Below, piece by piece: positions 1 to 42,550 of a stretch of 64,000 nucleotides of DNA. Positions within the stretch are counted from its first letter, which is position 1. Each line of letters opens with the position of its first letter. The translations under genes were made by a program, and so were the position numbers. The stretch is from Klebsiella pneumoniae (GTDB lineage Bacteria > Myxococcota_A > UBA9042). The notes under the pieces are model-generated. The model ran no database searches, was not told the DNA's origin, and was given only the letters and a program-made list of their open reading frames with translations. The DNA lies in assembly GCA_945889325.1 (NCBI GenBank), contig CAMDBH010000003.1:27702-91701 (forward strand). Reading direction: 5' to 3'.

Positions 1-960
1 ATTGGTGCTGCCATCGCAGTTGTCGTCGTAATTTGTGCCGCAATCCTCTTTTTGACCCGGAAAAACCAGCGCTTTGCTGTCGTCGCAGTCGGTCGCTTTG
101 GCCAAAAGCACTTTGTAATTGCTGATCGCCGTACAACTGCATTGCTTGTCGTTGCTTTTACCGAAGGTATCGCCGTCAAAATCCATGTAAAAATCAGTGC
201 AACCGGTCGCATCGATGTCGTTGGTGTTGCCGTCGCAGTTGTCGTCGTACACTGTCACACAGCTCTCTTTTTGGCCAGGAAATACCAAGGCTTTTGCGTC
301 ATCACAGTCCGTCGCCTTGGCCAAAAGCACCTTGTAACTGCCAGCGACTGCACAAGTGCACTGCTTGTCGGCCAGCTTGCCGAAGGTATCGTTGTCAAAA
401 TCCATGTAATAATCTATGCAGTTGGTGGCGTTGATGTCGTTGGTATTGCCGTCACAATTGTCGTCGTACAACGTCGTACAAGTTTCCTTCTGCCCCGGAA
501 ATACCCCGATCTTGGTGTCATCGCAGTCGGTCGCGGCAGCCAGCAAAACCTTGTAGTTGCCAGCAGCTGTGCAGGTGCACTGCTTGTCGGCCAGTTTGCC
601 AAAGTTGTCGCCGTCGGCGTCCATGTAATAGTCGATGCAACTTGTGGCATTGATATCATTGACATTTCCATCGCAGTTGTCGTCATACAGCGTCACGCAA
701 GTCTCTTTGGCTGCTGGGTTCACGGTGATTTTGCTATCGTCGCAATCGGTTGAAAGTAATGACGTATATTTGGCGCCGATGTCGGCCGCGCACAAGCACT
801 GCTTGTCGGCGAGCAAGCCATAACCGTCCAAGTCTTGATCCTTGAAATAATTCACACAACCGCCGCTGCCTGCATCGTTGGTCTTGCCATCGCAGTTGTC
901 GTCAAACAGCGTACCGCACAATTCCGCCTTGCCCGGATTGGCTGCCACGTTCTTGTCATC
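1..960 (-). repeat. Exact 219-bp (73-aa) tandem coding modules inside the giant lipoprotein gene
   Basis: The landmark GTTGTCGTC(G/A)(T/A)A recurs at 19, 238, 457, 676 and 895, an exact 219-bp spacing. Each module encodes ~DCDDxKxxVFPGQKExCxTxYDDNCDGNTNDIxATxCxDxYMDxDxDxFGKxxDKQCxCTxxxxYKVLLAxAT. Confidence 0.8.
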
Positions 961-3900
961 GCAGTCGCCGCCTCCCTTGGGGCAAACCTTGGGAATGCCC
1001 ACAATGACCATGTTGGTTTCGCAGTACTGGTCCAAATCGTCGTCGCAGCCCTCATCGGTCTTGCTGCTACAGTTGTCGTCAATATCGTTGCAAATTTCCG
1101 TTGCGCCTGGGTTGACGGCCTTGCCTGCGCCGGGGGTGTCGTTGCAATCGTCCGCGGTATTGGCTTTGCTCTTTGGGCAAACGTTGGGCGAGCCGATGAC
1201 CACCATGTTGCTGTCGCAATACGCATCGCCATCGTCGTCACAGCCCTCGTCGACGCCAGCCGTGCAGTTGTCATCGGTATTGTTGCATTTTTCCACAGCG
1301 CCCGGATTGATCGCGTTGTTGTTGTCGTTGCAGTCGTCGCCTGTGTTGGCCTTGCTCTTCGGGCAAATCTTGGGCACGCCCACGACCGTCATCGCGCTTG
1401 TGCAATACCCGTCGGTGTCAATGTCGCAGCCTTCGTCCGTGCCGCCCGCGCAGTTGTCATCGATATCGTTGCAGCTTTCTGTCGCAGTCGGGAAGATCGC
1501 TTTGGCGGTGTCGTTGCAATCCTTGCCGCCGTTGGGGCAAATCTTGGGCACTCCGACAATGGGAATGTTGATATCGCAGTACAAATCGCCGTCGTCGTCG
1601 CAGCCCTCGTCGACTTTGCCACTGCAATTGTCATCGATGTCATTGCAAGATTCAGGCGTGCCTGGATTCACTGCTTTTTCCGCGTCGTTGCAATCGTCGC
1701 CGTTGCCGTTGATCGCCGCAGTTTTGGGACACACGGTCGGTTTGCCGACCACAACCATGGCACTGTCACAGTACTGATCTAGGTCGTCGTCGCAGCCCTC
1801 ATCGATCTTGGCGCTGCAGTTGTCATCGATATTGTTGCAACTTTCGACCATGCCCACGTTGATCGCCTTGTCGCTGTCGACGCAGTCATCGCCCTTACCA
1901 TTGATCGCCTTGGTCTTTGTGCACACGTTGGGCACGCCTACGACGTCCATCGTGCCGTCGCAGTACAAATCGCCGTCGTCGTCGCAGCCTTCGTCGGTTT
2001 TGCCGTCGCAGTTGTTGTCCTTGTTGTCACAGATTTCAACGGCTTTCTTGCCCAACGTCGAACAAGTCACCGACTGCTGACCGCTGCAAATCACCTTGCC
2101 ACCTGAACATTCGCCCAAGCCGCAGCCGGCATCCTTGACCAGCAATTTGCTCAATTCGCCATAAGTAAAGCCTTCATCCACGCCGTCTTTGCAGTTGTTG
2201 TCGATGTCGTCGCAAATTTCCGCTGCGCCCGGATTGATTTTGACCTCGTCCTTTTTGCAATCGCCACCACCCTGTGGGCAAGCCTTTGGTTTACCTACAG
2301 TTTGAATGCCGATATCGCAATATGCATCTTTGTCGTCGTCGCATTTCTCATCGGTCGCGCCGTTGCAGTCATTGTCCTGATCGTCGCAAATTTCCAAAGT
2401 ATTTTGTTTGCCTGAACCATTGGCGTCCGTCGAACAGGTCACCGTTGCCTGCGTCAAGCATTCGACCTTGCCCATGCCGCAAGCGCCCACGCCATCGCAA
2501 ACCGCATTCCAGCCGAGTTTTTGGCCGTCAGATTGCGTGTACTGCCACAATTCATCGGTTTTGCCGTTGCAGTCATTGTCCTTGGTGTCACAGACTTCAG
2601 GCGTCACTTTAGTAAGTGTCGAACAAGTCAGGCCTTTCTTGTCGCCTGTGCACACGACCGTGCCACCCACGCAGGCGCCGCTGCCGCAGCCCTGACCGAT
2701 AGGCTTAAGCGCGCCCAAATCGTTGAAATCGAAATCCTCATCTGTCTTGCCATCGCAGTCGTTGTCTTTGGCATCGCAAGTGATTTCCTTGCTGTCTTCA
2801 TAACTTTCAACTTTGGTGTATTCGCAAACCCATTTGCCCGCAGGACACGTCGCAATCACATTGGCCGGATTGCACGCCCCGACAAGCTTGCAATTGGATT
2901 CCGGGACCGTCATGCCGTCGTCGGTTTTGCCATTGCAATCATTGTCTTTGGCGTCACACACTTCCTTGGTGATCTTAGGCAGTGAATCGCAGGTCAACTT
3001 GGTCGTCGAAACATCGCACACGACCTTGCCGCCATTGCAGTCGCCTGTGCCACAACCTTCTGTAATAATCTTGGTTTTCCCCAAATCGTCAAAGCTGAAA
3101 TCGTCGTCGACCTTGCCGTCGCAATCGTTGTCTTTGCCGTCGCAATGGGCTTCGATCATTTTGTAGCAGGTTTGGCTCAAGCCCTCGCAATGGCAATTCG
3201 GCGTGCCTGCCTTGCAAGTTTGCGTCTTGTCAAACTCAACATTGGCGACAGCTGCGTAATTGCACAACCAACTACCTGCAATGCAGACGGTTTTGATGCT
3301 GCCGAATGCCGTACCGCTGCAAACGCCCTTCTTTTCACAAGTTGAATCTTCAATCGTCGTTAAATTTTCGTCCGTCTTGCCGTTGCAATCGTTGTCTTGG
3401 TTGTCGCAGATTTCGGGCTTGTTCTGCTTGGCTGAACCATTGAAATCCGTGGAGCACACTGCTTTATCAAGCGTTTTGTTGCATTCGACCACGCCAATCG
3501 CGCAAGCACCGACACCGTCGCAAGACGTGACGGGTTTGCCGTCTTTGACCAAGATCCCAAGTTTTGCACCTTTTTCATCGGTGTAGCTGTAATCTTCGTC
3601 GGTCTTGCCATCGCAGTTGTTGTCCAAGTAATCGCACAGATCTTTGCTCGGTCGGTTGTCGCCTTCGCAGCCGACGCAAGTGTTCTTGGCCCCAAAAGCG
3701 CTGCTGCAATCCAATGGATCTGAAGGTTTTTGTCCCCCTGGGTAATGTTTGCACACTGTGGTGCCGTGCTTCAAATTGCACTCGCCGTCTTTGTCGCCGC
3801 ATTCGACGTCGTTGGCTTCCGGATTGCCGTCGTCAACGACTTTGTCGCAGTCGTTGTCAACGCCATCGCACAATTCCTTGGCTTCCGGATTGATCTTTGG

Positions 3901-5319
3901 ATCCCCATCGTTGCAATCTGCCGGTTCATACCAACCGTCGCCGTCTTTGTCCTTGGCCGAATCGCATTTGTCATTGCCAACGCAGCCTTGCAATTTGCCA
4001 TCGCCGCATTTTTCAGGTGCGCCCGTGTGGCTAAGCGGGTCCTTGTCGTCGCAATCCGCCGGTGCTGGCTGACCGTCGCCATCTTTATCGTTGGCATCAC
4101 AAGGCGTTGACTTGCCGTCGCAATTGGTGTCACAGACAAAATCTTTGTCGGCCGCGATCAAACAGCACTTTTCTGCTTGGGTGCCCGGGTGGTATTCCGC
4201 GTGAAATTTTGCGTACTTGAACTTGCAAGCCTTGTCTTCGGTCTCATTGTCCACGCCGTCGCCGTCGATGTCCTTGAGCGTGCAACCGTTGTTGATCGCG
4301 CCGTCGCAATCGTCGTCCTCTTGGTTGTCGCAATTTTCTTTGGCCAATTTCTTCGCATCACCCGAACACAGCCATGCCGTTGATTTACCATCCTTATCCG
4401 CCGGCGCACACGCGAGCACGCCTTTGCAGATGCCGATGCCGCACGCCTGATCTTTCAAGGCCTTCTTGATCGACGGATCGCCCTGAACCGGCAGATCTTC
4501 ATCGACTTCGCCGTTGCAATTGTTGTCTTTGCCGTCGCACAGTTCAGCCGCGCCCGGATAAATTGTCGCATCTTTTTCAGCCCCTGCACCACAGCTCACT
4601 TCTTGACAGTCGGCCACGCCGTCCTTGTCGCTGTCCACGCAGGGTGTGTCGCCGCCAGCACAATCTTCGTCAATGTTATTACCGCATTGGGTACATGCGT
4701 TTTCCGACGAGTACGGATTGGCCGCAAAGCCTTTGGGCACGCCTTTGGCGTCCGGCGTGCCGTCATCGTTGCAGTCACAAGCGGCTAATTTGTCCGGCGA
4801 ACACTCAGGTGTGCAATTGGGCACGCCATCGCCGTCCGCGTCGCATTTGGGCGTTGTTTCAGGGACTTTGAGCACGATCACAAACTGAGCTTTCTCGGAC
4901 GTATCGATGACGCCGTTGAAACTCGACAAAACCTTGCCGTTGTCGACGCCGCGCACGCGCACTTGCAACTTTCCGGCTGAAGTTGCGGGCTGTTGGATGT
5001 CCCACGTGAATGGCTGTGTCACGATGTTGCGCCCAGCTGGCAGCAAAATATTGAAATCGGCTTCTTGGCCCACGGCCGGCAATTTAATCGCAACCGGGGC
5101 ACCCGGCTCACTCAACAGCGCAATTTCTAGACCAGTAATCGACCCTTGCAGCGGTGCCTCGCTCGTGATGCTCAAGCGCAGCGTCTGGTAAACGATGACT
5201 TCACTGCCGCAACTTGGCGCCACCGCGATAGCCATTGCGCTTAAAAAAAGCACGGTCAAACTGCGCGCTAACCGCGGCAATCGTGCGGACAATTTTGAGC
5301 TAAGCAGCCATTTCAACAT
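1..5319 (-). CDS. Giant Cys-rich repeat lipoprotein with MopE-like 'putative metal-binding motif' modules; N-terminus complete, C-terminus beyond the left window edge (>=1773 aa)
   Basis: Absent from the ORF track because it has no stop inside the window. The minus-strand frame whose last codon is positions 3..1 was hand-translated at several points without stops. ATG at 5319-5317 is preceded by GGAG. N-terminus MLKWLLSSKLSARLPRLARSLTVLFLSAMAIAVAPSCGSE reads as a signal peptide plus lipobox-like Cys. Translated stretches include DCDDSKALVFPGQKEDCGTNYDDNCDGSTN and DCNDTPGAGKAVNPGATEICNDIDDNCSSKTDEGCDDD. All listed + strand ORFs here are Val/Ala-rich shadow ORFs. Confidence 0.8.
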   Translation of the reverse strand, partial: MLKWLLSSKLSARLPRLARSLTVLFLSAMAIAVAPSCGSEVIVYQTLRLSITSEAPLQGSITGLEIALLSEPGAPVAIKLPAVGQEADFNILLPAGRNIVTQPFTWDIQQPATSAGKLQVRVRGVDNGKVLSSFNGVIDTSEKAQFVIVLKVPETTPKCDADGDGVPNCTPECSPDKLAACDCNDDGTPDAKGVPKGFAANPYSSENACTQCGNNIDEDCAGGDTPCVDSDKDGVADCQEVSCGAGAEKDATIYPGAAELCDGKDNNCNGEVDEDLPVQGDPSIKKALKDQACGIGICKGVLACAPADKDGKSTAWLCSGDAKKLAKENCDNQEDDDCDGAINNGCTLKDIDGDGVDNETEDKACKFKYAKFHAEYHPGTQAEKCCLIAADKDFVCDTNCDGKSTPCDANDKDGDGQPAPADCDDKDPLSHTGAPEKCGDGKLQGCVGNDKCDSAKDKDGDGWYEPADCNDGDPKINPEAKELCDGVDNDCDKVVDDGNPEANDVECGDKDGECNLKHGTTVCKHYPGGQKPSDPLDCSSAFGAKNTCVGCEGDNRPSKDLCDYLDNNCDGKTDEDYSYTDEKGAKLGILVKDGKPVTSCDGVGACAIGVVECNKTLDKAVCSTDFNGSAKQNKPEICDNQDNDCNGKTDENLTTIEDSTCEKKGVCSGTAFGSIKTVCIAGSWLCNYAAVANVEFDKTQTCKAGTPNCHCEGLSQTCYKMIEAHCDGKDNDCDGKVDDDFSFDDLGKTKIITEGCGTGDCNGGKVVCDVSTTKLTCDSLPKITKEVCDAKDNDCNGKTDDGMTVPESNCKLVGACNPANVIATCPAGKWVCEYTKVESYEDSKEITCDAKDNDCDGKTDEDFDFNDLGALKPIGQGCGSGACVGGTVVCTGDKKGLTCSTLTKVTPEVCDTKDNDCNGKTDELWQYTQSDGQKLGWNAVCDGVGACGMGKVECLTQATVTCSTDANGSGKQNTLEICDDQDNDCNGATDEKCDDDKDAYCDIGIQTVGKPKACPQGGGDCKKDEVKINPGAAEICDDIDNNCKDGVDEGFTYGELSKLLVKDAGCGLGECSGGKVICSGQQSVTCSTLGKKAVEICDNKDNNCDGKTDEGCDDDGDLYCDGTMDVVGVPNVCTKTKAINGKGDDCVDSDKAINVGMVESCNNIDDNCSAKIDEGCDDDLDQYCDSAMVVVGKPTVCPKTAAINGNGDDCNDAEKAVNPGTPESCNDIDDNCSGKVDEGCDDDGDLYCDINIPIVGVPKICPNGGKDCNDTAKAIFPTATESCNDIDDNCAGGTDEGCDIDTDGYCTSAMTVVGVPKICPKSKANTGDDCNDNNNAINPGAVEKCNNTDDNCTAGVDEGCDDDGDAYCDSNMVVIGSPNVCPKSKANTADDCNDTPGAGKAVNPGATEICNDIDDNCSSKTDEGCDDDLDQYCETNMVIVGIPKVCPKGGGDCDDKNVAANPGKAELCGTLFDDNCDGKTNDAGSGGCVNYFKDQDLDGYGLLADKQCLCAADIGAKYTSLLSTDCDDSKITVNPAAKETCVTLYDDNCDGNVNDINATSCIDYYMDADGDNFGKLADKQCTCTAAGNYKVLLAAATDCDDTKIGVFPGQKETCTTLYDDNCDGNTNDINATNCIDYYMDFDNDTFGKLADKQCTCAVAGSYKVLLAKATDCDDAKALVFPGQKESCVTVYDDNCDGNTNDIDATGCTDFYMDFDGDTFGKSNDKQCSCTAISNYKVLLAKATDCDDSKALVFPGQKEDCGTNYDDNCDGSTN
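960..2100 (-). repeat. Second, more degenerate module series (174-195 bp units) in the same gene
   Basis: The landmark (G/A)TTGTC(G/A)TC recurs at about 1072, 1267, 1453, 1627, 1819 and 2011. Units encode CDDDxDxYCxxxMxVVGxPxxCPKxxxxxxDDCNDxxxAxNPGxxExCNxxDDNCxxxxDEG. Confidence 0.6.
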
Positions 5320-5524
5320 GGGAACTCCGAGCAACCGGCGGGAAAAAATTCTGCAACCGAGGGCGCAGTGCGCGCAGGGCCAAGTGTCGGAGTATAACTG
5401 TCCCCGCGGCCATAGGTAAACGCCAAGCGACAAAAACTTATCCACTGGGGCGGCGCGGCCTTCAGCACAGCCATAGACGTTTGGGCGCGGTTTGCAATAG
5501 TCTGGCGCGCCGGAGGTATCGCAA

Positions 5525-7228: not shown

Positions 7229-7354
7229 CACATGCGCGCGGTTGCAGCGGTTGTGCGATTTTGTGAGCAGCGCCGATTGTGTTTGCGTCCAGCGAGCTTG
7301 GCGAGTATCGTGTGGCGTTGCGCGACACGGGCGTCACCGCGCGGATGGACGAAC

Positions 7355-9967
7355 ATGGCATGTAAAGCGGGTTCAACGGCGAAATTTGGGGCGTGCGCGG
7401 CGGTTTTTGCCCTCGCTTTGGCGCTCTATGGCTGCGGTGACGATCCAGTTGTGGCGGGCGACAACACAAAGGCCGATGCCTTACAAGACGACGCCATTTT
7501 GGACATTGCCCCAGCGCCAGACCAAGGCAACGCGCCCGATGCTGCGCCGATCGCCGATGCCGTCGACGCAGCGCAAGGTCTGGATAGTGTCCCAGACGAC
7601 GACATCGATGCGCTCACGCCCGATGACAATTTCGCCGGTGAACTCGACGATGCGGATCAAGACGTACCCGACGATGTCACGGCGACGGATGTCGAGTTGC
7701 CGCCCGACGTGATTGCCCCAGAAGATGTTCCAAGCGTTGAAGAGATTGCCCCGCCTGACGACGTGCTGAATCCCCAAGACTTGGTTGTGATTGAAGACGC
7801 GCCGCCGCCGCCGGACGCGCCGCCGCCACCGGACGCACCCCCGCCACCGGACGCGCCCCCGCCGCCGGACGCGCCCCCGCCGCCGGACGCGTCACCACCG
7901 CCGGACGTGGCGCCACCGCAGGACGCTCTGCCACCGCCGGATGCGTCACCACCGCTGGACGTGGCGCCACCGCAGGACGCGCCGCCCGCCGATGTTTCCG
8001 CTTTTGACGGCGGCGATCCCTGCGTGCTCGATCCGAACCAATGTTTTGACGGCAACCCCTGCACCAATGACAAATGCTTGCCCGGGGGCGTTTGCGAATG
8101 GACCCTCAAATCCGGTCCTTGCGACGACGGCAACCTTTGCACCAGCGGTGAGGCATGCCTTGGCTTGAAATGCGTCGGCGGAAAACCTGCTGACGCCGCA
8201 GTGGTTTGCAACGACAGCAATGCCTGCACAACGGACAGTTGTGACGCCGCCTTAAAAGCTTGCGTACATATCGCCGCCGACGGTCCTTGCGACGACGGAG
8301 CCGTGTGTACGGCTGGCGAAACGTGCAAGAACGCGGCTTGCGTGAGCAAAGCGCCCAATTCCGCTTGCGACGACGGCAAACCGTGCACCCAAGACCTGTG
8401 CGACGACAAAACCGGCGCGTGTAGCTGGATCGGCTTACTGGCCGCTTGCGACGATGGCAACGATTGTACCACCGGCGATACCTGCAAGAACGGCAATTGC
8501 GTCTCTGGGCCACCGACGGCCTGTAATGACGGTGATAGCTGCACAGCTGATACCTGCGACAAAATCAGCGGCAAGTGCACCGTGACACCCGTTGCGGGTG
8601 CAGCAGCGCTGCCATGCACGGATTCCTCGATCGGCGGCCGGTGCACCAAAGCCTTCAAAGTAAACGGAAATTGGCCACAAGCTGAAGCCGCTTGCGTGAC
8701 CTGGGGCGGCCACTTGGTGCGGATGGACACCGCGCAGGAAAACACCGATGTGCGCAACCTGGCCAACGGCGTTTGTGGCGTTAATGCGCAGACTTGGATG
8801 GGGGCCAACGATTTCGCGGTTGAAGGCAAATTTGTCTGGTCCGACGGCGGCGCAGTGGCGTTTAGCGCCTGGAATCAAGGCGAACCAAACAATTTCAATA
8901 CCGGCTGCCCGGAGGGCGAAGATGCCACCGAAATTATCGACGGCGCCCACTGGAATGACATCTGTTCGACAACCGTTTTAGGCTGCTACGTTTGTCAACG
9001 GCCGTCACCCAAGATCGCTTGCGGCGACGCCAACCTGTGTTTAAGCGGGGGCTTGTGCACAGCCGGCAAATGCACGGGTGCAAAATTCGGCTGTGATGAC
9101 GCCAATCCATGCACCGTCGACGCCTGCGCCAATGGCGCCTGCAAAGCGACCAACGCCCCGGACGGCGCAGCTTGCGGAGTGGGCGGCAAGTGTACGGCTG
9201 GCAAGTGTTCGCCCGGCTTTGACCTCAGTTCGCCCGGCAGCAGTTGTGCCATGGTTTTGGCGACATCGCCCACGGCGCCCAGCGGGATTTATTGGCTGGA
9301 TCCGGACGGACCCGGGCCGATCGCGCCGCTGCAGGCCCAGTGCGAAATGGTGTTGGGCGGCGGTGGTTGGACGTTGCTAGCGGTGCAATCCGATGACGCC
9401 CAGCCGACTTGGACGTGGAACGCGCGGGCCTTGTGGCGCACAGACGTCAAAGTGTTTGGCGCAGTCAATGCGTTGACCAAGGATTACAAGTCGAGTTTGC
9501 TCCATTCGCTGCCCGTCAAAGACATGCTTTTTGTGCACGCGCCGTCAGGCGTTTGGGCGCAATACAATGCAATGAACAATGGATTGCAGTCGCTTGCAGC
9601 AAAGATTGCCGCATTGCCAGAAAAAGTTTGCTACAAAGTAAAGGGCGACGGTTTTCCGATGACAGCGGGCACCCTGACCGTAGCTGGCAAGATGTGCGAC
9701 ACAAATTTGTACTTTAATCCTGCAGATCACGACGCCGATGCGGTCAAATGCGATACCGATACCGATCCCGAGGACACCGAAGGCCCCGCCTGGAATGTGA
9801 ACCGCCAAGACGGCTGCTTTGACGATCCGGGTTGGGGGGGCGGCCTAGGCAGCGTGGTTTCGCAACCGGCTGATGAGTATGCTAATATTGGATTTGGCTG
9901 GGCGCTTGATTTGAACAAAGGGGCCGTGGGGACTGGGGCCAATCGCATGGCTGTCTATGCCAGGTAG
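7355..9967 (+). CDS. Secreted lipoprotein with acidic tether, PPPPDA repeats, Dictyostelium-type Cys repeats (CxDGNxCTxDxC), a C-type lectin domain (EPN/WND) and a fibrinogen-like GGGWT domain
   Basis: The track ORF starts at 7232, but the internal ATG at 7355 gives MACKAGSTAKFGACAAVFALALALYGCGDD, a signal peptide with lipobox. CTLD signature: WMGANDFAVEGKFVWSDGG...WNQGEPNN...EDATEI...WNDICS...CYVCQ. Fibrinogen-like block: SGIYWLDPDG...AQCEMVLGGGGWTLL. Confidence 0.8.
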   Translation: MACKAGSTAKFGACAAVFALALALYGCGDDPVVAGDNTKADALQDDAILDIAPAPDQGNAPDAAPIADAVDAAQGLDSVPDDDIDALTPDDNFAGELDDADQDVPDDVTATDVELPPDVIAPEDVPSVEEIAPPDDVLNPQDLVVIEDAPPPPDAPPPPDAPPPPDAPPPPDAPPPPDASPPPDVAPPQDALPPPDASPPLDVAPPQDAPPADVSAFDGGDPCVLDPNQCFDGNPCTNDKCLPGGVCEWTLKSGPCDDGNLCTSGEACLGLKCVGGKPADAAVVCNDSNACTTDSCDAALKACVHIAADGPCDDGAVCTAGETCKNAACVSKAPNSACDDGKPCTQDLCDDKTGACSWIGLLAACDDGNDCTTGDTCKNGNCVSGPPTACNDGDSCTADTCDKISGKCTVTPVAGAAALPCTDSSIGGRCTKAFKVNGNWPQAEAACVTWGGHLVRMDTAQENTDVRNLANGVCGVNAQTWMGANDFAVEGKFVWSDGGAVAFSAWNQGEPNNFNTGCPEGEDATEIIDGAHWNDICSTTVLGCYVCQRPSPKIACGDANLCLSGGLCTAGKCTGAKFGCDDANPCTVDACANGACKATNAPDGAACGVGGKCTAGKCSPGFDLSSPGSSCAMVLATSPTAPSGIYWLDPDGPGPIAPLQAQCEMVLGGGGWTLLAVQSDDAQPTWTWNARALWRTDVKVFGAVNALTKDYKSSLLHSLPVKDMLFVHAPSGVWAQYNAMNNGLQSLAAKIAALPEKVCYKVKGDGFPMTAGTLTVAGKMCDTNLYFNPADHDADAVKCDTDTDPEDTEGPAWNVNRQDGCFDDPGWGGGLGSVVSQPADEYANIGFGWALDLNKGAVGTGANRMAVYAR
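7797..7994 (+). repeat. About 11 tandem 18-bp units encoding (A/S/V)PPP(P/Q)D(A/V) inside the lectin gene
   Basis: Direct reading shows GCGCCGCCGCCGCCGGAC and variants repeated head to tail. Protein: PPPPDAPPPPDAPPPPDAPPPPDAPPPPDASPPPDVAPPQDALPPPDASPPLDVAPPQDAPPAD. Confidence 0.85.
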
Positions 9968-9991
9968 CCCACCCGGCGGGTTTTGCCCTGA

Positions 9992-10025
9992 CAGCGTGTG
10001 AAAAAACCTTTTCACAGCCTCTGAG
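9992..10025. repeat. REP-like palindromic hairpin, copy A (TGTGA-N10-TCACA core)
   Basis: CAGCGTGTGAAAAAACCTTTTCACAGCCTCTGAG lies about 25 nt after the lectin gene stop. It matches the copies at 17629 (reverse complement) and 42163 very closely. Confidence 0.6.
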
Positions 10026-11539: not shown

Positions 11540-11751
11540 TGTCAACTTGTTTTGCGCTTACCGCAGCCTAGATCGGCCCCTCATGCCACCACGTTGAAAA
11601 AGTTGATTTGATGCACGGCGGTTACCTTGTGCCGGCCGTCAATTCGCGCCATGCACAAATTCGCAGCACCCGAAACTTGCTGTTTTTAAAGTAAAAAACG
11701 TGATCGTCGCCCGCGGCCGACTTAGCCGTGACGACGAAGTCTGCTGAATTC

Positions 11752-11908
11752 GGGCCTGTCTAACAATAAGTCATCGACACCGAGGGCGTCGATGGCGAGC
11801 CGATTTGCAGGCGGAATGAGGGAAGATATTGGAATCTCTGACCGATTGACAACGGACAAATCGGCCGTCAGCGGCGACCGAATGTATGACTTATTGTTAG
11901 GCAGGCCC
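11752..11908 (-). mobile_element. 157-bp MITE-like / structured element, copy 1 (22-bp terminal inverted repeats)
   Basis: Ends are GGGCCTGTCTAACAATAAGTCAT...ATGACTTATTGTTAGGCAGGCCC. The reverse complement matches 26248..26403 with only 4 differences, all in one arm. It lies 24 nt downstream of the stop of the 11933..15346 gene. Confidence 0.75.
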
Positions 11909-11932
11909 TTAGGGCAAAACCGTAGCGGAGCG

Positions 11933-14900
11933 TCACAGAGAGACCCAAACCGCCCCAGCCACGCCCGTCGTATTCTTACTGGCCGCAGGATTGGCAAACC
12001 CAGGAATAACAAGGCCTCCCGCACCACCGCCACCGCCACCACAACCGCCAACCGTCACACCATTGCCGCCATTGGCGCCGCCGGTACCGCCGCAATTGCT
12101 GTCATAACCAGAAGTTCCCCAATGCCCAGCCCCACCGGCGCCAAAACCACCGCCGGTGCCCGCAGGCTGATTGGAACCGGGCGAAGGTGTGCCCGCTACG
12201 CCAGCGTTGGCGCCCATCGGCACGGCCGAACCCACACCGCCGCCATCGGGCGAATTGGTGTAACCCGCGCCGCCGCCAGAGCCGCCGTTGCCGCCTTTGG
12301 CGCTCGGCTGGCCGCTGCCGGCCGTATGCGGCTGTCCCGGCAGACCGCCGTTGACCACCGTAGTGCCGAATTTGCTCGCGCCGCCGCCGGTCGAAATCAA
12401 GCCACCCGCACCGACTTCAATCGTCAACTGCGCACCTGCCTGCACGGCAATGGCTTTTTGCAAAATGTAGTAACCCGAGCCGCCGCCGCCGCCCGGATAA
12501 TAAAATCCAGTGCCGCCTCCCGCGCCACCGCCTATCATCGTGACAGTCAAGCTGTTTGTCGCGCCAGGGACCGTGAACGTGTCGGTGCCGGCAACGCTCC
12601 ACACGCAGCCGTTGCCCAACGGCGTGCCCTTGCCACAAGCCAGTGCAGTTAGTAAGCAATCCGCCGAACAGCCCGAAGCTGGCACGCCGTTTTTGTTGCC
12701 CAAATCGCATTGTTCCGGTGCCTCGACGCTGCCGTTGCCGCATACTTGCTTGACGATGCATTTGCCCGCCATGCACCAGTTCAAACCGCCGCAGTCGGTC
12801 TTATCGACTACATTATTGGGAACACAGCCTTTTATGCCATCGCAGGTGTCCAGCGTGCACGGGTTGCCATCGTCGCAAACGGTGACCTTCTTGACGCAAT
12901 TGAGGTTTTTGCACACCTCATTGCTGGTACAAGTGTCATTGTCGGGGCACAGCAGCACGTTGGGCGTCTGTACACAACCGGCTGATTTATCGCAGCTATC
13001 GTCGCTACAAATGTTGCCGTCGTCGCAGTTGACCGCTGGGCCGCCGCACACGCTGTTTTTGCAAGCGTCGTTTTGCGTGCACGCGTTGCTGTCGTCGCAT
13101 TTGCCCGCGTTGCCGGTGTTGATGCAGCCCTTCTTGGCATCGCAGGCGTCGTCGGTGCAAACATTGTTGTCATTGCAACTCACAGCGCTGCCTTCACAAT
13201 CGCCGAATTTGCAAATGTCGCTTTTGGTACACGCATTGCCGTCGTCGCAGCCTTTGCTGTTAAAAGTCGGATTGCAACCTTTGATTTTGTCGCATAAATC
13301 GTCAGTACACACGTTGTTGTCATTGCAATCTTTGGCCAAACCGCCGCTGCAAAAGCCGTTGGCGCAGGCGTCGCCCAACGTGCAGACATTGCCGTCGTCG
13401 CAAGGGGTGGCGTTCATGGCTGCGGCGTCAAAAAAGCAAGCGCCCGTGGTTTTGTTGCAGGTATCTGCCGTGCACAACACGTTGTCCGCGCACACTTTTG
13501 CCGCGCCCGAAACGCACAAGCTGTCCTTGCAATTGTCGCTTTGCGTACACGCGTCGCCGTCGCTGCACGGCACGGCATTGGCGAGGTGGGTGCAGCCGTT
13601 CTTGCCATCGCAGCTGTCATCGGTACACGGGTTGCTGTCGTCGCAGTTGACGGTTTTTCCTTGGCAGATTGCGTCGTTGCAGCCGTCGTTCTGCGTGCAC
13701 GCGTCGCCGTCGTTGCACGGAGCGCCCGCGGCTTTGTTCTTGTAGTCGCACTTGCCGTTGACCAAGCTGCAAGCGCCGACTACGCAAGTGACACCAGCGT
13801 CACAGGTTTTTGCCGCGCCTTTGGCGCATGCGCCGGCGTTGCACAAGTCTCCGATCGTACATGGGTTGTCGTCGTCGCAGGCAATGCCGTCCAAATTCGT
13901 GGTCTTGCAGCCCAATACCGCGTCGCAGGCATTGCCCGTACACGGATTGTTGTCGTCGCAACTGACAATTTTCCCAATACATTCGCCGCTTTTGCACACA
14001 TCCGTTTGCGTGCAGACCGTGCCGTCATCGCAAGGCACACCGTCCTGCGCCGATTTGCCGACGCATTTACCGCTGCTGTTGTCGCAACTGGCCTTGGCGC
14101 ATGGGTTTGTGTTGTCGCAGTCCACCATTTTGCCGGCCGTGCAAGTGCTGCCGACGCAATGGTCCGCAGAAGTACAAGCATTTCCGTCGGCGTCACAGGC
14201 TTTGCCGTCATCGGCGGTTTTGGTGCAGCCGCTCGCTGGGTCGCAGGCGTCGGTTGTACAAGGGTTGCCGTCGTCGCAGATCTTGCCTGCACCGGGCACG
14301 CAACTGCCCTGTTTACACTGATCATTTTCAGTACACGCGTTCTTGTCCGCGTCGCAAGGCACGTTGTTGAGCTTGTTGTACTGACAACCTTGCTGCGGAT
14401 CACAACTGCCGACGTTGCAGGTCCCGCCAGCATCGCAGGTGGATTCATCGGTTAAGCCGTCGCAATCGTTGTCCTTGCCGTCGCAAACTTCCACATCGAG
14501 CGCGGGCGCTGCGCACGTCGTCAGCCCGCTGCTGCCGCACGCGCGCACGCCAGCGCACTTGCCCACGAGTTCGCCCTTGTCATTCTTGTGCTCAATAAAA
14601 CAGTTGGTTTGCGCCTTTTGCGCCACCGCCAATTCGCTGCAAGTGCATTCACCGTATTTCAATTCGGGCGCGGTTGAGGTTTTCACGCACTGTTTGACCG
14701 GCGCCCCTTCCACTGAATTTACGCTTTGACATCCATAACCTGCCGCGCAATCGCCGTCGATCGCACACGCTGTCCCGCAAAAATTGCCCTGACCGGCTTC
14801 ATGGACGCAGGCCGCATCGCCGATGCCAAGCGATTGGCAATCCTTTGATTTCACGCAAGGATCGCACAAATGCATGTATTTGGGCACGCAAATCGTGACG

Positions 14901-15346
14901 GAATCGCCGCTACCTGAATTGATCAACGTGCACTTGAAGCCATCGGCGCACTTGTCGACGCAAGGCGTCGCGCAGACTTTACCGCTGCCTGAAGCATTGC
15001 CGCCGGTTTCAATGCATTGGGCGTTGTCGCAATCGCCATTTTCCTTGCAACTACAGCCAGGTGCGCCGGGGCATTTCTGGGCCCCATCCGCGCCAGCCGC
15101 GTCGACCGGCGCGACAGCATCGGCGCCAGTTGCGTCTGCCACGTCCGCTTGCGGCGCCGCAATATCTGCGGAATCTGCTTTGTTCGCATCGAGTTGAGCG
15201 ACTTCCTCCACGGCGCTATCGCCCAACGCATCGGTGCCTGCGTTGGCTGCAATGGGGCCAGAACAAGCGCCGATTGTGCAAAGGGCCCACATAATCGCAA
15301 GGGAAATCAAGATTCTTGCGGGGGTTCGGTCTGCGAAAAAAGCCAT
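11933..15346 (-). CDS. Large secreted lipoprotein with acidic tether, about 25 Dictyostelium-type Cys repeats, one Myxococcus Cys-rich repeat and a C-terminal glycine-rich domain
   Basis: The internal ATG at 15346 (AAGGAC RBS) gives MAFFADRTPARILISLAIMWALCTIGACSG (lipobox). CDDGNPCTxDxCDxxxGC units recur. CGNGSVEAPEQCDLGNKNGVPASGCSADC matches the myxo disulfide repeat pattern. C-terminus: GGGAGGGTGFYYPGGGGGSGYY...IEVGAGG...GGNGGSGGGAGY. Confidence 0.8.
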   Translation of the reverse strand: MAFFADRTPARILISLAIMWALCTIGACSGPIAANAGTDALGDSAVEEVAQLDANKADSADIAAPQADVADATGADAVAPVDAAGADGAQKCPGAPGCSCKENGDCDNAQCIETGGNASGSGKVCATPCVDKCADGFKCTLINSGSGDSVTICVPKYMHLCDPCVKSKDCQSLGIGDAACVHEAGQGNFCGTACAIDGDCAAGYGCQSVNSVEGAPVKQCVKTSTAPELKYGECTCSELAVAQKAQTNCFIEHKNDKGELVGKCAGVRACGSSGLTTCAAPALDVEVCDGKDNDCDGLTDESTCDAGGTCNVGSCDPQQGCQYNKLNNVPCDADKNACTENDQCKQGSCVPGAGKICDDGNPCTTDACDPASGCTKTADDGKACDADGNACTSADHCVGSTCTAGKMVDCDNTNPCAKASCDNSSGKCVGKSAQDGVPCDDGTVCTQTDVCKSGECIGKIVSCDDNNPCTGNACDAVLGCKTTNLDGIACDDDNPCTIGDLCNAGACAKGAAKTCDAGVTCVVGACSLVNGKCDYKNKAAGAPCNDGDACTQNDGCNDAICQGKTVNCDDSNPCTDDSCDGKNGCTHLANAVPCSDGDACTQSDNCKDSLCVSGAAKVCADNVLCTADTCNKTTGACFFDAAAMNATPCDDGNVCTLGDACANGFCSGGLAKDCNDNNVCTDDLCDKIKGCNPTFNSKGCDDGNACTKSDICKFGDCEGSAVSCNDNNVCTDDACDAKKGCINTGNAGKCDDSNACTQNDACKNSVCGGPAVNCDDGNICSDDSCDKSAGCVQTPNVLLCPDNDTCTSNEVCKNLNCVKKVTVCDDGNPCTLDTCDGIKGCVPNNVVDKTDCGGLNWCMAGKCIVKQVCGNGSVEAPEQCDLGNKNGVPASGCSADCLLTALACGKGTPLGNGCVWSVAGTDTFTVPGATNSLTVTMIGGGAGGGTGFYYPGGGGGSGYYILQKAIAVQAGAQLTIEVGAGGLISTGGGASKFGTTVVNGGLPGQPHTAGSGQPSAKGGNGGSGGGAGYTNSPDGGGVGSAVPMGANAGVAGTPSPGSNQPAGTGGGFGAGGAGHWGTSGYDSNCGGTGGANGGNGVTVGGCGGGGGGAGGLVIPGFANPAASKNTTGVAGAVWVSL

Positions 15347-17628: not shown

Positions 17629-17666
17629 CTCAGAGGCTGTGAAAAAGGTTTTTTCACACGCTCTCA
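17629..17666. repeat. REP-like palindromic hairpin, copy B; likely bidirectional terminator
   Basis: CTCAGAGGCTGTGAAAAAGGTTTTTTCACACGCTCTCA starts 8 nt after the TAG of the + gene and overlaps the TGA (17664-17666) of the convergent permease gene. Confidence 0.6.
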
Positions 17667-19214
17667 TTCGCCGCTCGGCAGCGTAATCCACTTGGCCACC
17701 AACAACAGCAGTCCCATGAAACCGTAGCCCAGCGCGTGTTGCCACGCGGGTGCCAAGGCAAAAGCGACATCGCCGGGGGTGAATTGCCAACTGTGCATCA
17801 AGCCGATGGCGCTGGTGGTGGCAGCGGCAAAGCACCAAAAACTCGCGCGGACAAAGCGTTTTTCGATAATTTCAACCGTGGTCGCGGCAAGGAACATGGC
17901 TGAAAAAATAAAGCCCTGTTCCAAGGCAAAGGCGCCGGTGATCCAAGTGTCGCCGCGTTCGAAGAGTGCAATGATTGTCGCGTCAAACGGGCGACCGGGC
18001 GCGCCCATGCCCGCGGCGCGCAAGCCATTTTTCGCCAAAAGGGCACCCCACGCGCCAACGGCGGGCAGGATCCCGAGCACAACCGCAGGTGCGTGCTCAC
18101 GCGGCACAGCTGAAAACGCCTGTGCGGTGATAACCAGGCCGATCCAAAGGACAATGGCCATGCCGGCATCGATGGGAATGGCCCAAGCGATGTAGGCCAA
18201 AGTGCCGCTCAGGCAAACGACTGTGGCAAAGATGCCGTTGAGCACGGAGTAACCGGCGCCGGCGCCCAAGGCCTTCCAGCCGGGATGGCCGATGTAGATG
18301 GTTGTCGGAAATGCGGAGCCAAAACAGGCGGCTACAATCGAGCCGATGCCGTTGACAGTCAGGGATGGTGCCGTTGGATAAGCGTCACCGGCGGCTTCGG
18401 CAGATTCGATATTTTGCAGGCTGCCTAAAACGTTGAACAAACCCATCGGCACAATAACGGCCAAGTAAGTCAGCAGGTGACCAGCGGTCAGGGACTGCCA
18501 CAATTCGCCAAGTACTGGAATCGGCAGCTGAAAGCCCGCACCTAGCGGCGGCGGGCCGACAGGTGCCAGACCGGTGGCCCACGCCAAAATCACGCCGAGC
18601 ACTACCGCGACGGCGCCGCCGGGCAAGTTGAACTTGAACTTCACTTTGCCAAAATAGGTCAATAAAACAACACCTAACGTCGAAAGGCCGACCAGCGGAT
18701 GGGCGTAAGTGCGAAACAGAAAACCAAGCGAGATAAAGCCCAGCGCAATGCCCGCCAACGTCGACAGCAATGCGGCACGCGGCGTGAACTTGCGGATCTT
18801 GTCGGCGACAGTCGCTCCCAAAAGCTCAATGACACCAGCACCTAACGTTGCAACCAAGCCTGCATGCCAAGCGATGCGCACGGGATCAGGATGGCCTGCT
18901 GCCTGAGCCGCCAATTTGGCTGGCAACATGATCAAAAAGACATGGCCAAAGAGCGACACCGTGTTGATGCCGTAGGGCAGCGCGCAAACGTCAGTGCGTC
19001 CTGTCTTTTTCGCCAGTTGCATCGCTTGCCAGGCGTAAAACAAATTACCGACCAGCAGCGACATCGCCGCCCCGGGCAAGACGCGGCCGTACAAAAGGTC
19101 CGACGGCATGCCGAGCACGAAGCGGCACAACCCATCGATGAGCAACAATTGCACAAGGCTGTCTAGCGCCAGACCAAAGAAGCCGTCGAGGTCGCCGCGG
19201 GTAAACCAGCGCAT
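17664..19214 (-). CDS. NCS2/AzgA-like (xanthine/uracil/vitamin C permease family) transporter
   Basis: The internal ATG at 19214 (GGAGA RBS) gives MRWFTRGDLDGFFGLALDSLVQLLLI...ALPYGINTVS. The protein is polytopic and hydrophobic throughout. The family call is from memory of similar N-terminal blocks. Confidence 0.6.
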   Translation of the reverse strand: MRWFTRGDLDGFFGLALDSLVQLLLIDGLCRFVLGMPSDLLYGRVLPGAAMSLLVGNLFYAWQAMQLAKKTGRTDVCALPYGINTVSLFGHVFLIMLPAKLAAQAAGHPDPVRIAWHAGLVATLGAGVIELLGATVADKIRKFTPRAALLSTLAGIALGFISLGFLFRTYAHPLVGLSTLGVVLLTYFGKVKFKFNLPGGAVAVVLGVILAWATGLAPVGPPPLGAGFQLPIPVLGELWQSLTAGHLLTYLAVIVPMGLFNVLGSLQNIESAEAAGDAYPTAPSLTVNGIGSIVAACFGSAFPTTIYIGHPGWKALGAGAGYSVLNGIFATVVCLSGTLAYIAWAIPIDAGMAIVLWIGLVITAQAFSAVPREHAPAVVLGILPAVGAWGALLAKNGLRAAGMGAPGRPFDATIIALFERGDTWITGAFALEQGFIFSAMFLAATTVEIIEKRFVRASFWCFAAATTSAIGLMHSWQFTPGDVAFALAPAWQHALGYGFMGLLLLVAKWITLPSGE

Positions 19215-25724: not shown

Positions 25725-26246
25725 ATGAAAATCAAGCAGTGGGCGGCCAGCTTGGGTTTGATTGTTGCTGTGGGCGGCATCGGTGTTGCCTTGGCCGCGA
25801 CCCCAGCCAAACCGGCGGGCGAAGCGGCGGCGTCCAAGGAGATGGCGGCGCAACAAAAGGCGGCGCTGGAATTGGTGCACTTTGTAGTACCTCGCGATAT
25901 TTATCTGAAAATGACCGAGCAAATGATTGCGGCGATGTCCGGTGAACTGCGCAAACAGTCGGAAAAACTGCCCGATGATTTTGAAAAACGCATGCAAGAC
26001 GTGATGGCCGACGTTCTGCCGTATGACGAGTTGCTGGCGTGGGCGGCGGAAATCTATGCGACGCGGTTTACTGTGGACGAATTGCACGCGATTACGGCAT
26101 TTTACAAGACGCCGGTCGGGCAAAAGACCATCAAACTGATGCCGGAATTGCAGGGTGAAATCGGCCTGAAAGTGGCCAAACTTTTGCCACAGAAGTTGCC
26201 GGCTTCTATGAAGAAGTTTGGGCTTTTGCCGGCGGATGCGCCTTAA
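25725..26246 (+). CDS. DUF2059-family periplasmic protein
   Basis: GGAGGGAG RBS and signal peptide MKIKQWAASLGLIVAVGGIGVALA. FTVDELHAITAFYKTPVGQKTIKLMPE is the DUF2059 signature. Confidence 0.75.
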   Translation: MKIKQWAASLGLIVAVGGIGVALAATPAKPAGEAAASKEMAAQQKAALELVHFVVPRDIYLKMTEQMIAAMSGELRKQSEKLPDDFEKRMQDVMADVLPYDELLAWAAEIYATRFTVDELHAITAFYKTPVGQKTIKLMPELQGEIGLKVAKLLPQKLPASMKKFGLLPADAP

Positions 26247-26247
26247 C

Positions 26248-26403
26248 GGCCTGTCGAACAATAACTCATACATTCGGTCGCCGCTGACGGCCGATTTGTC
26301 CGTTGTCAATCGGTCAGAGATTCCAATATCTTCCCTCATTCCGCCTGCAAATCGGCTCGCCATCGACGCCCTCGGTGTCGATGACTTATTGTTAGACAGG
26401 CCC
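26248..26403 (+). mobile_element. 157-bp MITE-like / structured element, copy 2
   Basis: GGCCTGTCGAACAATAACTCAT...ATGACTTATTGTTAGACAGGCCC. It is flanked by TAA on both sides (26244-26246, the stop codon of the upstream gene, and 26404-26406). The interior is identical to the reverse complement of copy 1. Confidence 0.75.
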
Positions 26404-26424
26404 TAATTTGAAGACCGGTTCCAA

Positions 26425-27000
26425 TCACGCATGAATCCGCGCAATCGGCGCTAGATTCTCCAAAATCGTGCATTCCGCCAGCGCCAGTTCATCCAGCCGC
26501 GCGCGCACGGCCGCCGGATCGGCCAGCGTGTGGGCCAAGCGCACAAAAACACCGTAATGCCGCGCTTCACTTTCCAGCAAATCGCGATAAAGCGCGCGCA
26601 GTTCCTCATCGGGATGCCGTTGGGACAGCAGGACAAAGCGTTCACACGATCGGGCTTCGATCAGCGCCGCCACCAGCAAGGTGTCGATGATTTTGTCCGG
26701 CAGCCCTTTGCGCAAAAGCTTAAACAAACCAAATTGATAGCCTGATGGACTTTGGCGCGACACGGCAATGCCGCGGGCATCCAGCAAAGCGATCACCTGC
26801 TCAAAATGGTCCATTTCTTCGCGGGCGAGCGCCAGCATGGGCGCGATGAACTGCGGCTGTTCCGGGTATTTAGCCAGCAAATTCAGGGCATTGGCCGCGG
26901 CCTTGCGTTCGCAATGGGCATGGTCGACCAAAATTTCCGCGGTGTTGGCGATTGCTCGCTGTAACCACACAGATTCGGTACGAGATTTTAGACAAAGCAT
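26425..27000 (-). CDS. miaE: tRNA-(ms2io6A37)-hydroxylase MiaE
   Basis: ILVDHAHCERKAAANALNLL plus EEMDHFEQV and ESEARHYGVF form a di-iron ferritin-like motif set typical of MiaE. Confidence 0.8.
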   Translation of the reverse strand: MLCLKSRTESVWLQRAIANTAEILVDHAHCERKAAANALNLLAKYPEQPQFIAPMLALAREEMDHFEQVIALLDARGIAVSRQSPSGYQFGLFKLLRKGLPDKIIDTLLVAALIEARSCERFVLLSQRHPDEELRALYRDLLESEARHYGVFVRLAHTLADPAAVRARLDELALAECTILENLAPIARIHA

Positions 27001-41878: not shown

Positions 41879-41883
41879 CACCA

Positions 41884-41914
41884 GGCCTTTTGCCTCGCAG
41901 GCAAGTGGCTTTTG
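41884..41914 (+). terminator. Candidate intrinsic terminator after the Mo-hydroxylase cluster
   Basis: GGCCTTTTGCC-tcgca-GGCAAGTGGC forms an imperfect 10-bp stem followed by TTTT, 6 nt after the TAA at 41876-41878. Confidence 0.5.
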
Positions 41915-41989
41915 CGCTGCGCGCGGCTGACATTTGCAAAGGGTTATTTTGCGCCTAACGGCGCGCGGTTGCGGTAATCAAGGGATTTC

Positions 41990-42014
41990 GGCGCGCAAAT
42001 TGGGCGCGCTTTTT
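41990..42014 (+). terminator. Second terminator-like hairpin in the long intergenic region
   Basis: G-GCGCGC-aaattgg-GCGCGC-T followed by TTTT(T). Confidence 0.4.
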
Positions 42015-42162
42015 GGGGTAATTGGAAGGCCTTTTGCTTGTGAACGCGCGAGGTTTTGGCGCGTAAGACAAGTTGTCTTGGGCGGTTCGTGGTGGTGCGA
42101 ACGCAGTGGTTTTGCCGACACTGGTGAAAACCTCGCCCGCGCCACCGAGGGGTGGTCGCATC

Positions 42163-42199
42163 GCTGAGAGCGTGTGAAAAAACCTTGTCACCGCTCTCA
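42163..42199. repeat. REP-like palindromic hairpin, copy C
   Basis: GCTGAGAGCGTGTGAAAAAACCTTGTCACCGCTCTCA. It shares GAGAGCGTGTGAAAAAACCTT with copies A and B, and the GAGAGCG/CGCTCTC outer stem is intact. Confidence 0.6.
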
Positions 42200-42325
42200 A
42201 ATGGGGTCTGGTGTTGGCAATTTCTGGCGATCGACCAGCCGCCTACTCGGATTCCATTGCATAGACTCGATAATATCAATAACTTACCGCACAGGCACGC
42301 AGAAACTGCTAACACCTGACCCCTA

Positions 42326-42363
42326 CTCAGCAGCTGTGAAATGGATATTTCACAGCTGCTGAG
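42326..42363. repeat. Perfect 17-bp-stem palindrome, copy D of the same family
   Basis: CTCAGCAGCTGTGAAAT-ggat-ATTTCACAGCTGCTGAG. The arm CTCAG..GCTGTGAAA matches copy B. Confidence 0.65.
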
Positions 42364-42550
42364 CCTACGGCACGATCGTCAGCGGACCGACGATTTGGGC
42401 TGCCAGACCGACTTGCGCCAGAGGGAACGCTTTGGCCTTACACGCTGAAACGATTTGCGCGCCGTCTGGCAGAACCTCGCCAAGATAAAGGTGTATTCAT
42501 AACCGCGCGCCAGCAGCGCAAAACAAGCCGTTGCAAATGCGCACCCGCGG

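Follow-up and report, generated by a model that had tools for sequence, protein, structure and literature searches.

A 157-bp element repeated past the ends of genes

The stretch of DNA analysed here, 64,000 nt of contig CAMDBH010000003.1 (the window), comes from an uncultured freshwater member of the Myxococcota whose Ffh is 66-76% identical to that of the nearest reference metagenome-assembled genomes (MAGs; lakes Umea, Erken and Baikal). It carries two copies, A and B, of a 157-bp sequence bounded by terminal inverted repeats (Table 1), and a third copy, C, lies on a separate contig. We propose that this sequence is probably a miniature inverted-repeat transposable element (MITE) of the ISAzo13 family, that is, a non-autonomous deletion derivative that keeps only the two ends of an insertion sequence (IS) and encodes nothing. 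Copy A is set between two minus-strand genes, 24 nt past the TGA stop of a gene for a Cys-rich repeat protein and ~210 nt upstream of a DUF2252 gene. Copy B directly abuts the TAA stop of a DUF2059 gene and occupies most of the 178-nt gap between this gene and the convergent MiaE gene, whose stop is 21 nt from the other end of the copy. Copy C follows a fragment of a histidine-kinase gene, 82 nt after the stop.

The boundaries of the element are sharp. A repeat finder reports copies A and B as an inverted pair with 176-nt arms that are 95% complementary, and in the pairwise alignment their similarity ends at the terminal arms, GGGCCTG...CAGGCC(C/G). Copy A runs from GGGCCTGTCTAACAATAAGTCAT to ATGACTTATTGTTAGGCAGGCCC, and its arms are complementary at 22 of 23 positions, as compared with 20 of 23 in copies B and C. 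Exactly four substitutions separate A from B, at positions 1, 8, 10 and 19 of one 23-nt arm, and the interior is identical. A first-pass annotation of this DNA had described just such an inverted pair, with terminal inverted repeats and all four substitutions in one terminal arm, and the alignment bears it out; it placed the end of copy B correctly, but its start, 26248, left out the mismatched terminal base at 26247. A degenerate 22-nt pattern of the arm matches the window four times, at both ends of both copies, against a chance expectation of 0.01.

The element has no transposase gene and is too short for one. Two frames are open across it, one on each strand, and the peptides that they would encode match just one other called open reading frame (ORF), itself a copy of the element. 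Its size and arms place it among MITEs as these are usually delimited (less than ~300 bp, with terminal inverted repeats).

Two copies lying 14 kb apart in one window might also have been left behind by a local segmental duplication, or be an artefact of assembly. We regard this explanation as effectively refuted and give it next to no probability: similarity between the flanks is absent even next to the arms, the third copy lies in a different context, and independent assemblies in ENA, NCBI and Logan, made from several samples, also contain loci A and B.

Table 1. Coordinates of the repeated element, its arms, flanks and hairpin, and of the adjoining genes
Feature	Position in window	Strand	Basis or remark
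Element, copy A, 157 bp	11752..11908	- (orientation 2, sense to upstream gene)	Repeat finding and pairwise alignment
Element, copy B, 157 bp	26247..26403	+ (orientation 2)	Reverse complement of copy A
Copy A, invariant terminal arm, GGGCCTGTCTAACAATAAGTCAT	11752..11774	.	23-nt inverted-repeat pair, 96% complementary
Copy A, variable terminal arm, reverse complement GGGCCTGCCTAACAATAAGTCAT	11886..11908	.	
Copy B, variable terminal arm, CGGCCTGTCGAACAATAACTCAT	26247..26269	.	3 mismatches to partner arm, all three also in copy C
Copy B, invariant terminal arm	26381..26403	.	
TAA left of copy B	26244..26246	+	Putative target-site duplication and DUF2059 stop codon
TAA right of copy B	26404..26406	+	Second half of perfect TAA/TAA pair
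TAA on gene-proximal side of copy A	11909..11911	-	
GAA on distal side of copy A	11749..11751	-	One base off TAA
Terminator-like hairpin in copy A, CATCGACGCC-CUC-GGUGUCGAUG, then ACUUAUUGUU	11772..11794	-	Sense to upstream gene
Same terminator-like hairpin in copy B	26361..26383	+	Sense to DUF2059 gene
Cys-rich repeat protein gene (Dicty_CTDC, Gly_rich_2), upstream of copy A	11933..15346	-	Pfam
DUF2059 gene, upstream of copy B	25725..26246	+	Pfam
MiaE gene, convergent to DUF2059 gene	26425..27000	-	Pfam

Flanks and termini resemble those of ISAzo13-family elements

Read in gene-sense orientation, copy A lies between TAA and GAA, copy B between TAA and TAA, and copy C between TTA and TAA. TAA or TTA thus occurs at five of the six flanks, a triplet class that makes up 0.8% of the positions in the window (P 2e-10). 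Triplets of this kind flank ISAzo13 elements. We determined the ends of seven annotated members of the family from plasmids, and those of one further element (L078, below), and in seven of these eight we found GG/GA termini together with a perfect 3-bp duplication of TAA or TTA (Table 2). No convincing terminal repeat or clear ends could be recognized in the Rhizobium element (L085). That the duplication is three base pairs long agrees with published work, in which ISAzo13 and its eukaryotic relative Zator generate 3-bp target-site duplications (PMC10045372); the two are paired in a second study as well (PMC5718144).

Table 2. Ends and flanking triplets of ISAzo13-family elements from plasmids
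Element	Left flank	Left end	Right flank	Remark
Mesorhizobium huakuii (L083)	TAA	GGACACGTCGATAAATT...	TAA	
Streptomyces nojiriensis (L084)	TAA	GGGCTTGCAG...	TAA	
Streptomyces sp. NBC_00055 (L086)	TTA	GGGCGTGCAGATCTTTAACTCGT...	TTA	24/24 terminal repeat
Skermanella (L087)	TTA	GGAGACGCGCAGGAATAATT...	TTA	
Nostoc ISNpu10 (L088)	TAA	GGCATCATGTAAAAATAAC...	TAA	
Calothrix (L090)	TTA	GAGACCTCCACAG...	TTA	

The closest terminus was obtained on a metagenomic contig (L004) that the arm pattern retrieved. It matches the arm of the element at 21 of 23 positions (binomial P 3e-11, calculated as for a single comparison on a contig found by pattern scan), the match runs past the search pattern (TGTAT... inside), and TAA lies directly outside the terminus. 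About 130 nt further in, a 55-aa frame matches PF07592 (DDE_Tnp_ISAZ013) over profile positions 249-293 of 308, with an E value of 2.9e-8 and a score of 33.6 bits against a family cut-off of 26.9. Judged from its sequence, L004 appears to be an ISAzo13-type element that has lost part of its interior. Like copy B, it is placed between convergent genes, and there the flanking TA and the terminal G of the element make the TAG stop of a neighbouring gene. The 64 database proteins nearest to its transposase fragment (P0016-P0079) are all short C-terminal pieces of PF07592 (47-97 aa) from many metagenomes, and frameshifted or internally deleted ISAzo13 elements seem to be common in environmental bacteria.

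One relative of the L004 fragment led to a set of contigs (L078-L082) with a 1352-bp IS (L078 833-2184) that carries two frameshifted PF07592 ORFs. The left end of this IS reads TAA and then GGGCCCGTCCAAGAACAACTGAGTCAT, and its right end reads ...ATGGACGAGCCC and then TAA. Aligned without gaps from the first base, the two ends match the arm of the element at 16 of 23 (P 9e-6) and 15 of 23 (P 5e-5) positions, each P value being for one terminus. The arms of the element start GGGCC.GTC and contain AACAATAA(C/G)TC, a core that resembles ...ATAAATAACTC... at the right end of L078 and ...ATAAATAACTG... at the right end of L087. More generally, the element and the ends of L078, L086, L084 and L087 begin GGGC..G(T)C and share an A-rich ..AA(T/C)AAC(T).. 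core, and the combination of a GGGC..G.C start with an ..ATAACT.. core is common to the element, L086 and L087. Whereas the full ISAzo13 elements that we measured are 1.3-1.8 kb long and carry a transposase, the element in the window retains 157 bp without a transposase gene.

From this likeness of the termini we assign the element to the ISAzo13 family with moderate confidence. The first-pass annotation could match the repeat to no IS end, and took a hit to a known one as something that would remove the novelty; the termini do resemble the ends of PF07592 elements, and by that measure most of the novelty is therefore gone.

Further copies and assembly breaks

Copy C was reached through the two open-frame peptides of the element, which we searched in a collection of 5.8 billion proteins. 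This search returned P0001, a 72-aa called ORF that led to copy C at positions 313-469 of a 650-bp contig (L070; ENA ERZ27280326), where the flanking DNA bears no relation to that around A and B. The further copies that the first-pass annotation had suggested looking for thus include at least this one. When an open-frame peptide was run exhaustively with HMMER against 1.84 billion representative proteins, nothing beyond P0001 was returned. Exact-sequence look-ups aimed at DNA outside the window yielded short Logan contigs only, which stop at its edge or within it. The known set therefore comprises three loci and a variant allele of copy A (A', on L071), and as is usual for a MITE the copies are dispersed among unrelated flanks. 

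Copy B is 100% identical in an ENA contig (L001), the copy A locus is present with its element in independent assemblies (L071-L074), and sites A and B are occupied in every same-population contig that we obtained (L001, L071). The points at which assemblies stop are informative as well. Two Logan contigs (L073, L074) both begin within the element, exactly 30 nt from its end, and a third (L002) stops 27 nt into copy B, where the three preceding bases (TTA) are common to copy C. Logan assemblies use k = 31, and 30 shared bases are the k-1 signature of a repeat that has several different flanks. A MEGAHIT contig (L072) likewise begins inside the element. Short-read assemblies from three samples are thus broken within it, as expected for a multi-copy repeat.

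Results that weigh against a MITE

A number of our results count against a MITE of ISAzo13 origin. Just three loci are known, and the peptide searches for called ORFs that overlap copies gave a single protein. The exact arm pattern has no match in 185,579 reference genomes (one per species) and none in IMG/VR. Among 241 million records of JGI metagenomes it matches three (L003, L004 and L005), of which only L004 was kept; the L003 match lies in a phage-like coding sequence and the L005 match in an AT-rich, eukaryote-like large inverted repeat, and both were judged to be chance. A perfect 3-bp direct repeat flanks one of the three copies, B, with A and C each one point change away. The likeness to full-length IS ends is limited to ~25-35 nt, and the interior matches no IS that we examined. 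We found no ISAzo13 transposase in the window, in the source-population contigs obtained or in ~1 Mb of related Myxococcota loci. No empty site or presence-absence polymorphism was found by way of Ffh synteny; the relatives are too distant and lack the MiaE/DUF2059 pair, so no empty-site comparison is possible. Finally, a simple model of a decaying transposon does not predict that the variable positions should cluster in the 71 nt nearest the gene, as they do (below).

Other searches also returned no further copy or partner. No transposase, integrase or reverse-transcriptase domain was detected by Pfam in 34 large ORFs between ~5.5 and 63.3 kb of the window, in agreement with the first-pass annotation; the scan left out a giant minus-strand gene at the left edge and a chorismate-synthase-like ORF at the right edge. 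ISAzo13 transposases gave no match in the window by tblastn. Searching plasmids by blastn yielded nothing but a 22-nt chance match, and blastn-short and nhmmer searches with the element against 69 loci (1.06 Mb, mostly from related Myxococcota) recovered its own copies only. No full-length IS partner with identical ends was found in the window or in the related Myxococcota loci.

Variation among the copies

Four sequences were aligned for the study of variation: A (window 11752-11908), B (window 26247-26403), C (L070 313-469) and A' (L071 11639-11795). Their ten variable positions, which represent eight events, all lie in the gene-proximal 71 nt, and the distal 86 nt, which include one terminal arm and a terminator-like hairpin, are invariant (P ~0.002, calculated post hoc). 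The copies also show subfamily structure. Three derived substitutions in the variable arm are common to B and C and absent from A; these two copies therefore descend from a common mutated source copy, which means that the element has been copied and has not arisen independently at each site.

The contig with A' represents a variant strain whose sequence departs from that of the window at 6 of 11,887 positions (99.95% identity), and four of the six differences fall inside copy A. Counted as events, two of four are in the element against 0.05 expected (P ~0.001). They consist of a 3-nt block, GGA to ACC on the plus strand (L071 11691-11693; window 11854-11856), and a single position (L071 11709; window 11838). 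This concentration suggests gene conversion from a further variant copy, or assembly through one. Template switching was considered for the block, which reads TCC to GGT in gene sense, and was rejected: by eye, the change does not improve the palindrome, with 6 of 11 matches to the partner arm both before and after.

Predicted fold and the terminator-like hairpin

As RNA, the whole element is predicted to fold as one long, near-continuous hairpin, of -78.9 kcal/mol for the plus strand of copy A (z -8.7) and -69.2 kcal/mol for the minus strand (z -7.0), so that the terminal inverted repeat continues imperfectly deep into the interior. Both internal helices that the first-pass annotation had pointed out are present, namely GCCGATTTG/CAAATCGGC and CATCGAC...GTCGATG, the latter extending to 10 pairs and hence longer than claimed. 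A promoter-like match within the element (TTGTCA-18-TATCTT, 9/12) is weak and immediately precedes the terminator-like hairpin, and it was dismissed.

These strong folds on both strands, together with the location just past stop codons, would also suit a structured non-coding RNA or a cis-regulatory element of the 3' untranslated region (UTR), unrelated to transposition and duplicated. The fold is, however, uninformative in this respect, since any element with inverted terminal repeats folds in this way. Rfam gives no match at the gathering threshold for the whole window and none even at E <= 10 for 11650-12000. No pair is changed on both sides among the copies, a comparison of very low power with four near-identical sequences; five pairs of the predicted stem are broken in some copies, and one G-U pair has become A-U. 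Where the element stops, ends of the transposon type and TAA/TTA flanks are found, and it is absent from all of the related Myxococcota loci that we examined, unlike a conserved RNA gene. A structured RNA of this kind therefore seems to us very improbable. Of the two options that the first-pass annotation had left side by side, a MITE or a structured 3'-UTR RNA, the first is favoured by the ISAzo13-like ends, the TAA/TTA flanks and the third copy, and the second is left without support, given the missing Rfam match and the lack of compensatory change.

It is also possible, though unlikely, that the element spread by transposition and was then kept as a portable 3'-end module, acting as a terminator, as a barrier to 3' exonucleases or as both. 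The three copies all point the same way with respect to the gene that precedes them, and the RNA fold is very stable. In gene sense, a GC-rich hairpin of 10 bp (~-14 kcal/mol) is followed by ACUUAUUGUU and was flagged as terminator-like in both window copies. This hairpin lies within the distal 86 nt that do not vary among the four sequences, all eight events being proximal. Yet three of three in one orientation has a chance probability of 0.25, and the orientation is unambiguous for A and C only; copy B, lying between convergent genes, is also 3' of the MiaE gene in the opposite orientation. The statement of the first-pass annotation that both copies share an orientation relative to the upstream gene accordingly holds for A and is ambiguous for B. 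Terminator-like matches in these regions are no commoner than in shuffled sequence (1 against 0.9-1.2 expected), the U-tract after the hairpin is interrupted, and the copies show no compensatory changes but only substitutions that disrupt pairs of the stem. Still less likely, to our mind, is a more specific version, in which an ISAzo13-derived MITE has been co-opted in this lineage as a 3'-end cassette that is always sense to the upstream gene. There, TAA would serve both as target and as regenerated stop, the element would supply a terminator and a protective hairpin, and selection would keep the distal 86 nt while the proximal arm decays.

Comparison with other repeat families

Bacterial MITEs include Correia (Neisseria), RUP (Streptococcus pneumoniae), ERIC (enterobacteria) and Nezha (cyanobacteria). 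They are ~100-200 bp long, with terminal inverted repeats, no coding capacity and short A/T-rich target duplications; they are intergenic, often in 3' regions, where the long RNA hairpin can affect termination or mRNA stability. The element described here shares their size class, arms, lack of coding capacity, intergenic position and long predicted hairpin but has no sequence relationship to any of the four. The better-known parents of MITEs are IS630, which duplicates TA, and IS5, whereas the parent of this element appears to be ISAzo13; its known copy number, at three loci, is very low.

Intergenic hairpin repeats that often lie between convergent genes are also found among repetitive extragenic palindromes (REPs) and REPINs, in which paired REPs in a hairpin are spread by a REP-associated tyrosine transposase (RAYT) of the IS200/IS605-like type. 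A long intergenic near-palindrome 3' of genes recalls such elements, and the window has separate short palindromic repeats at gene ends. REPs carry a conserved GTAG-type head. In REPINs the arms are palindromic REPs, and neither a target duplication nor DDE-type terminal repeats are present. The terminal arms of our element, in contrast, are not themselves palindromes and have no GTAG-type head, its TAA/TTA flanks and PF07592-like, ISAzo13-type ends point to a DDE transposon, and the window ORFs scanned with Pfam include no Y1 transposase. We consider a REPIN-type origin extremely improbable.

Proposed mechanism

A MITE of ISAzo13 origin would be mobilised in trans. We propose that a DDE transposase of the ISAzo13 type, whose gene may lie elsewhere in the genome or may have been lost, would bind the 23-bp terminal inverted repeats and move the element as a unit into a TAA or TTA triplet, which would be duplicated on both sides. 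This trans-acting step is modelled on the general behaviour of MITEs and DDE transposons. Where the target is a TAA stop, the duplication would restore the stop codon, as in copy B. Insertions within genes would be removed by selection, so that the survivors would lie mainly just past gene ends.

The location of the copies 3' of genes may follow from the same steps. In a genome of 58% G+C, TAA/TTA triplets are rare (0.8% of positions), and because this rare target can be a stop codon that is regenerated, and because insertions in genes would be selected against, the 3'-of-gene pattern is better explained without invoking function. The element would then be of an ordinary kind, though a member of it that has not been described before.

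Genomic setting and other repeats

Copy B appears to lie inside a lineage-specific two-gene insertion. In related Myxococcota MAGs (L008, L009, L010, L016, L019) the gene order is Ffh, orf217 and a HEAT-repeat gene, whereas in the window the DUF2059 gene, copy B and the gene for MiaE, a tRNA hydroxylase, intervene between orf217 and the HEAT-repeat gene (25725-27000); we place copy B in an insertion because the relatives lack DUF2059 and MiaE at that locus. The gene upstream of copy A is one of several in the window (1-5400 on the minus strand, 7232-9967 and 11933-15346) for very large secreted-type proteins built of Cys-rich repeats, with Dicty_CTDC and Cu-binding MopE-like units and periods of 18, 45, 66 and 192-219 nt. 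One of these proteins exceeds 2,200 aa, and its gene extends past the left edge of the window.

A second repeat was seen on the contig of copy C, whose last 94 nt (L070 557-650) match window 42194-42287 on the minus strand at 92 of 94 positions. The shared block starts GTAAGTTATTGATATTATCGAG and contains a 20-codon ORF, MQWNPSRRLVDRQKL(P/L)TPDPI. In the window it falls in an apparently gene-free gap of ~560 nt (41879-42437) to which Rfam gives no match, and it may represent a promoter or leader that was duplicated, or a further mobile sequence. The short palindromic, terminator-like repeats mentioned above lie at window 9988-10018, 17637-17667, 42164-42194 and 42326-42363, with a consensus of approximately CTCAGrGGCTGTGAAAAAGG/TTTTTTCACAsGCTCTCAG. 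Two of them are 16-21 nt past stop codons, and the one at 42326-42363 forms a 17-bp stem, free of mismatches, around a 4-nt loop. The family may consist of REP-like elements, or it may be a bidirectional terminator that has been conserved.

Implications

Short-read assemblies of this uncultured Myxococcota population break at the element, which could serve as a strain marker. A new biological question would be opened only if it proved to be a 3'-end module. As a MITE, it would indicate that such elements arise from ISAzo13, a little-studied family and the prokaryotic relative of the eukaryotic Zator transposons, and that a preference for TAA/TTA targets can put them right on stop codons in a G+C-rich genome. 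Targeting of this kind would provide a simple mechanistic cause for a position 3' of genes, a pattern that is often taken as evidence of function.

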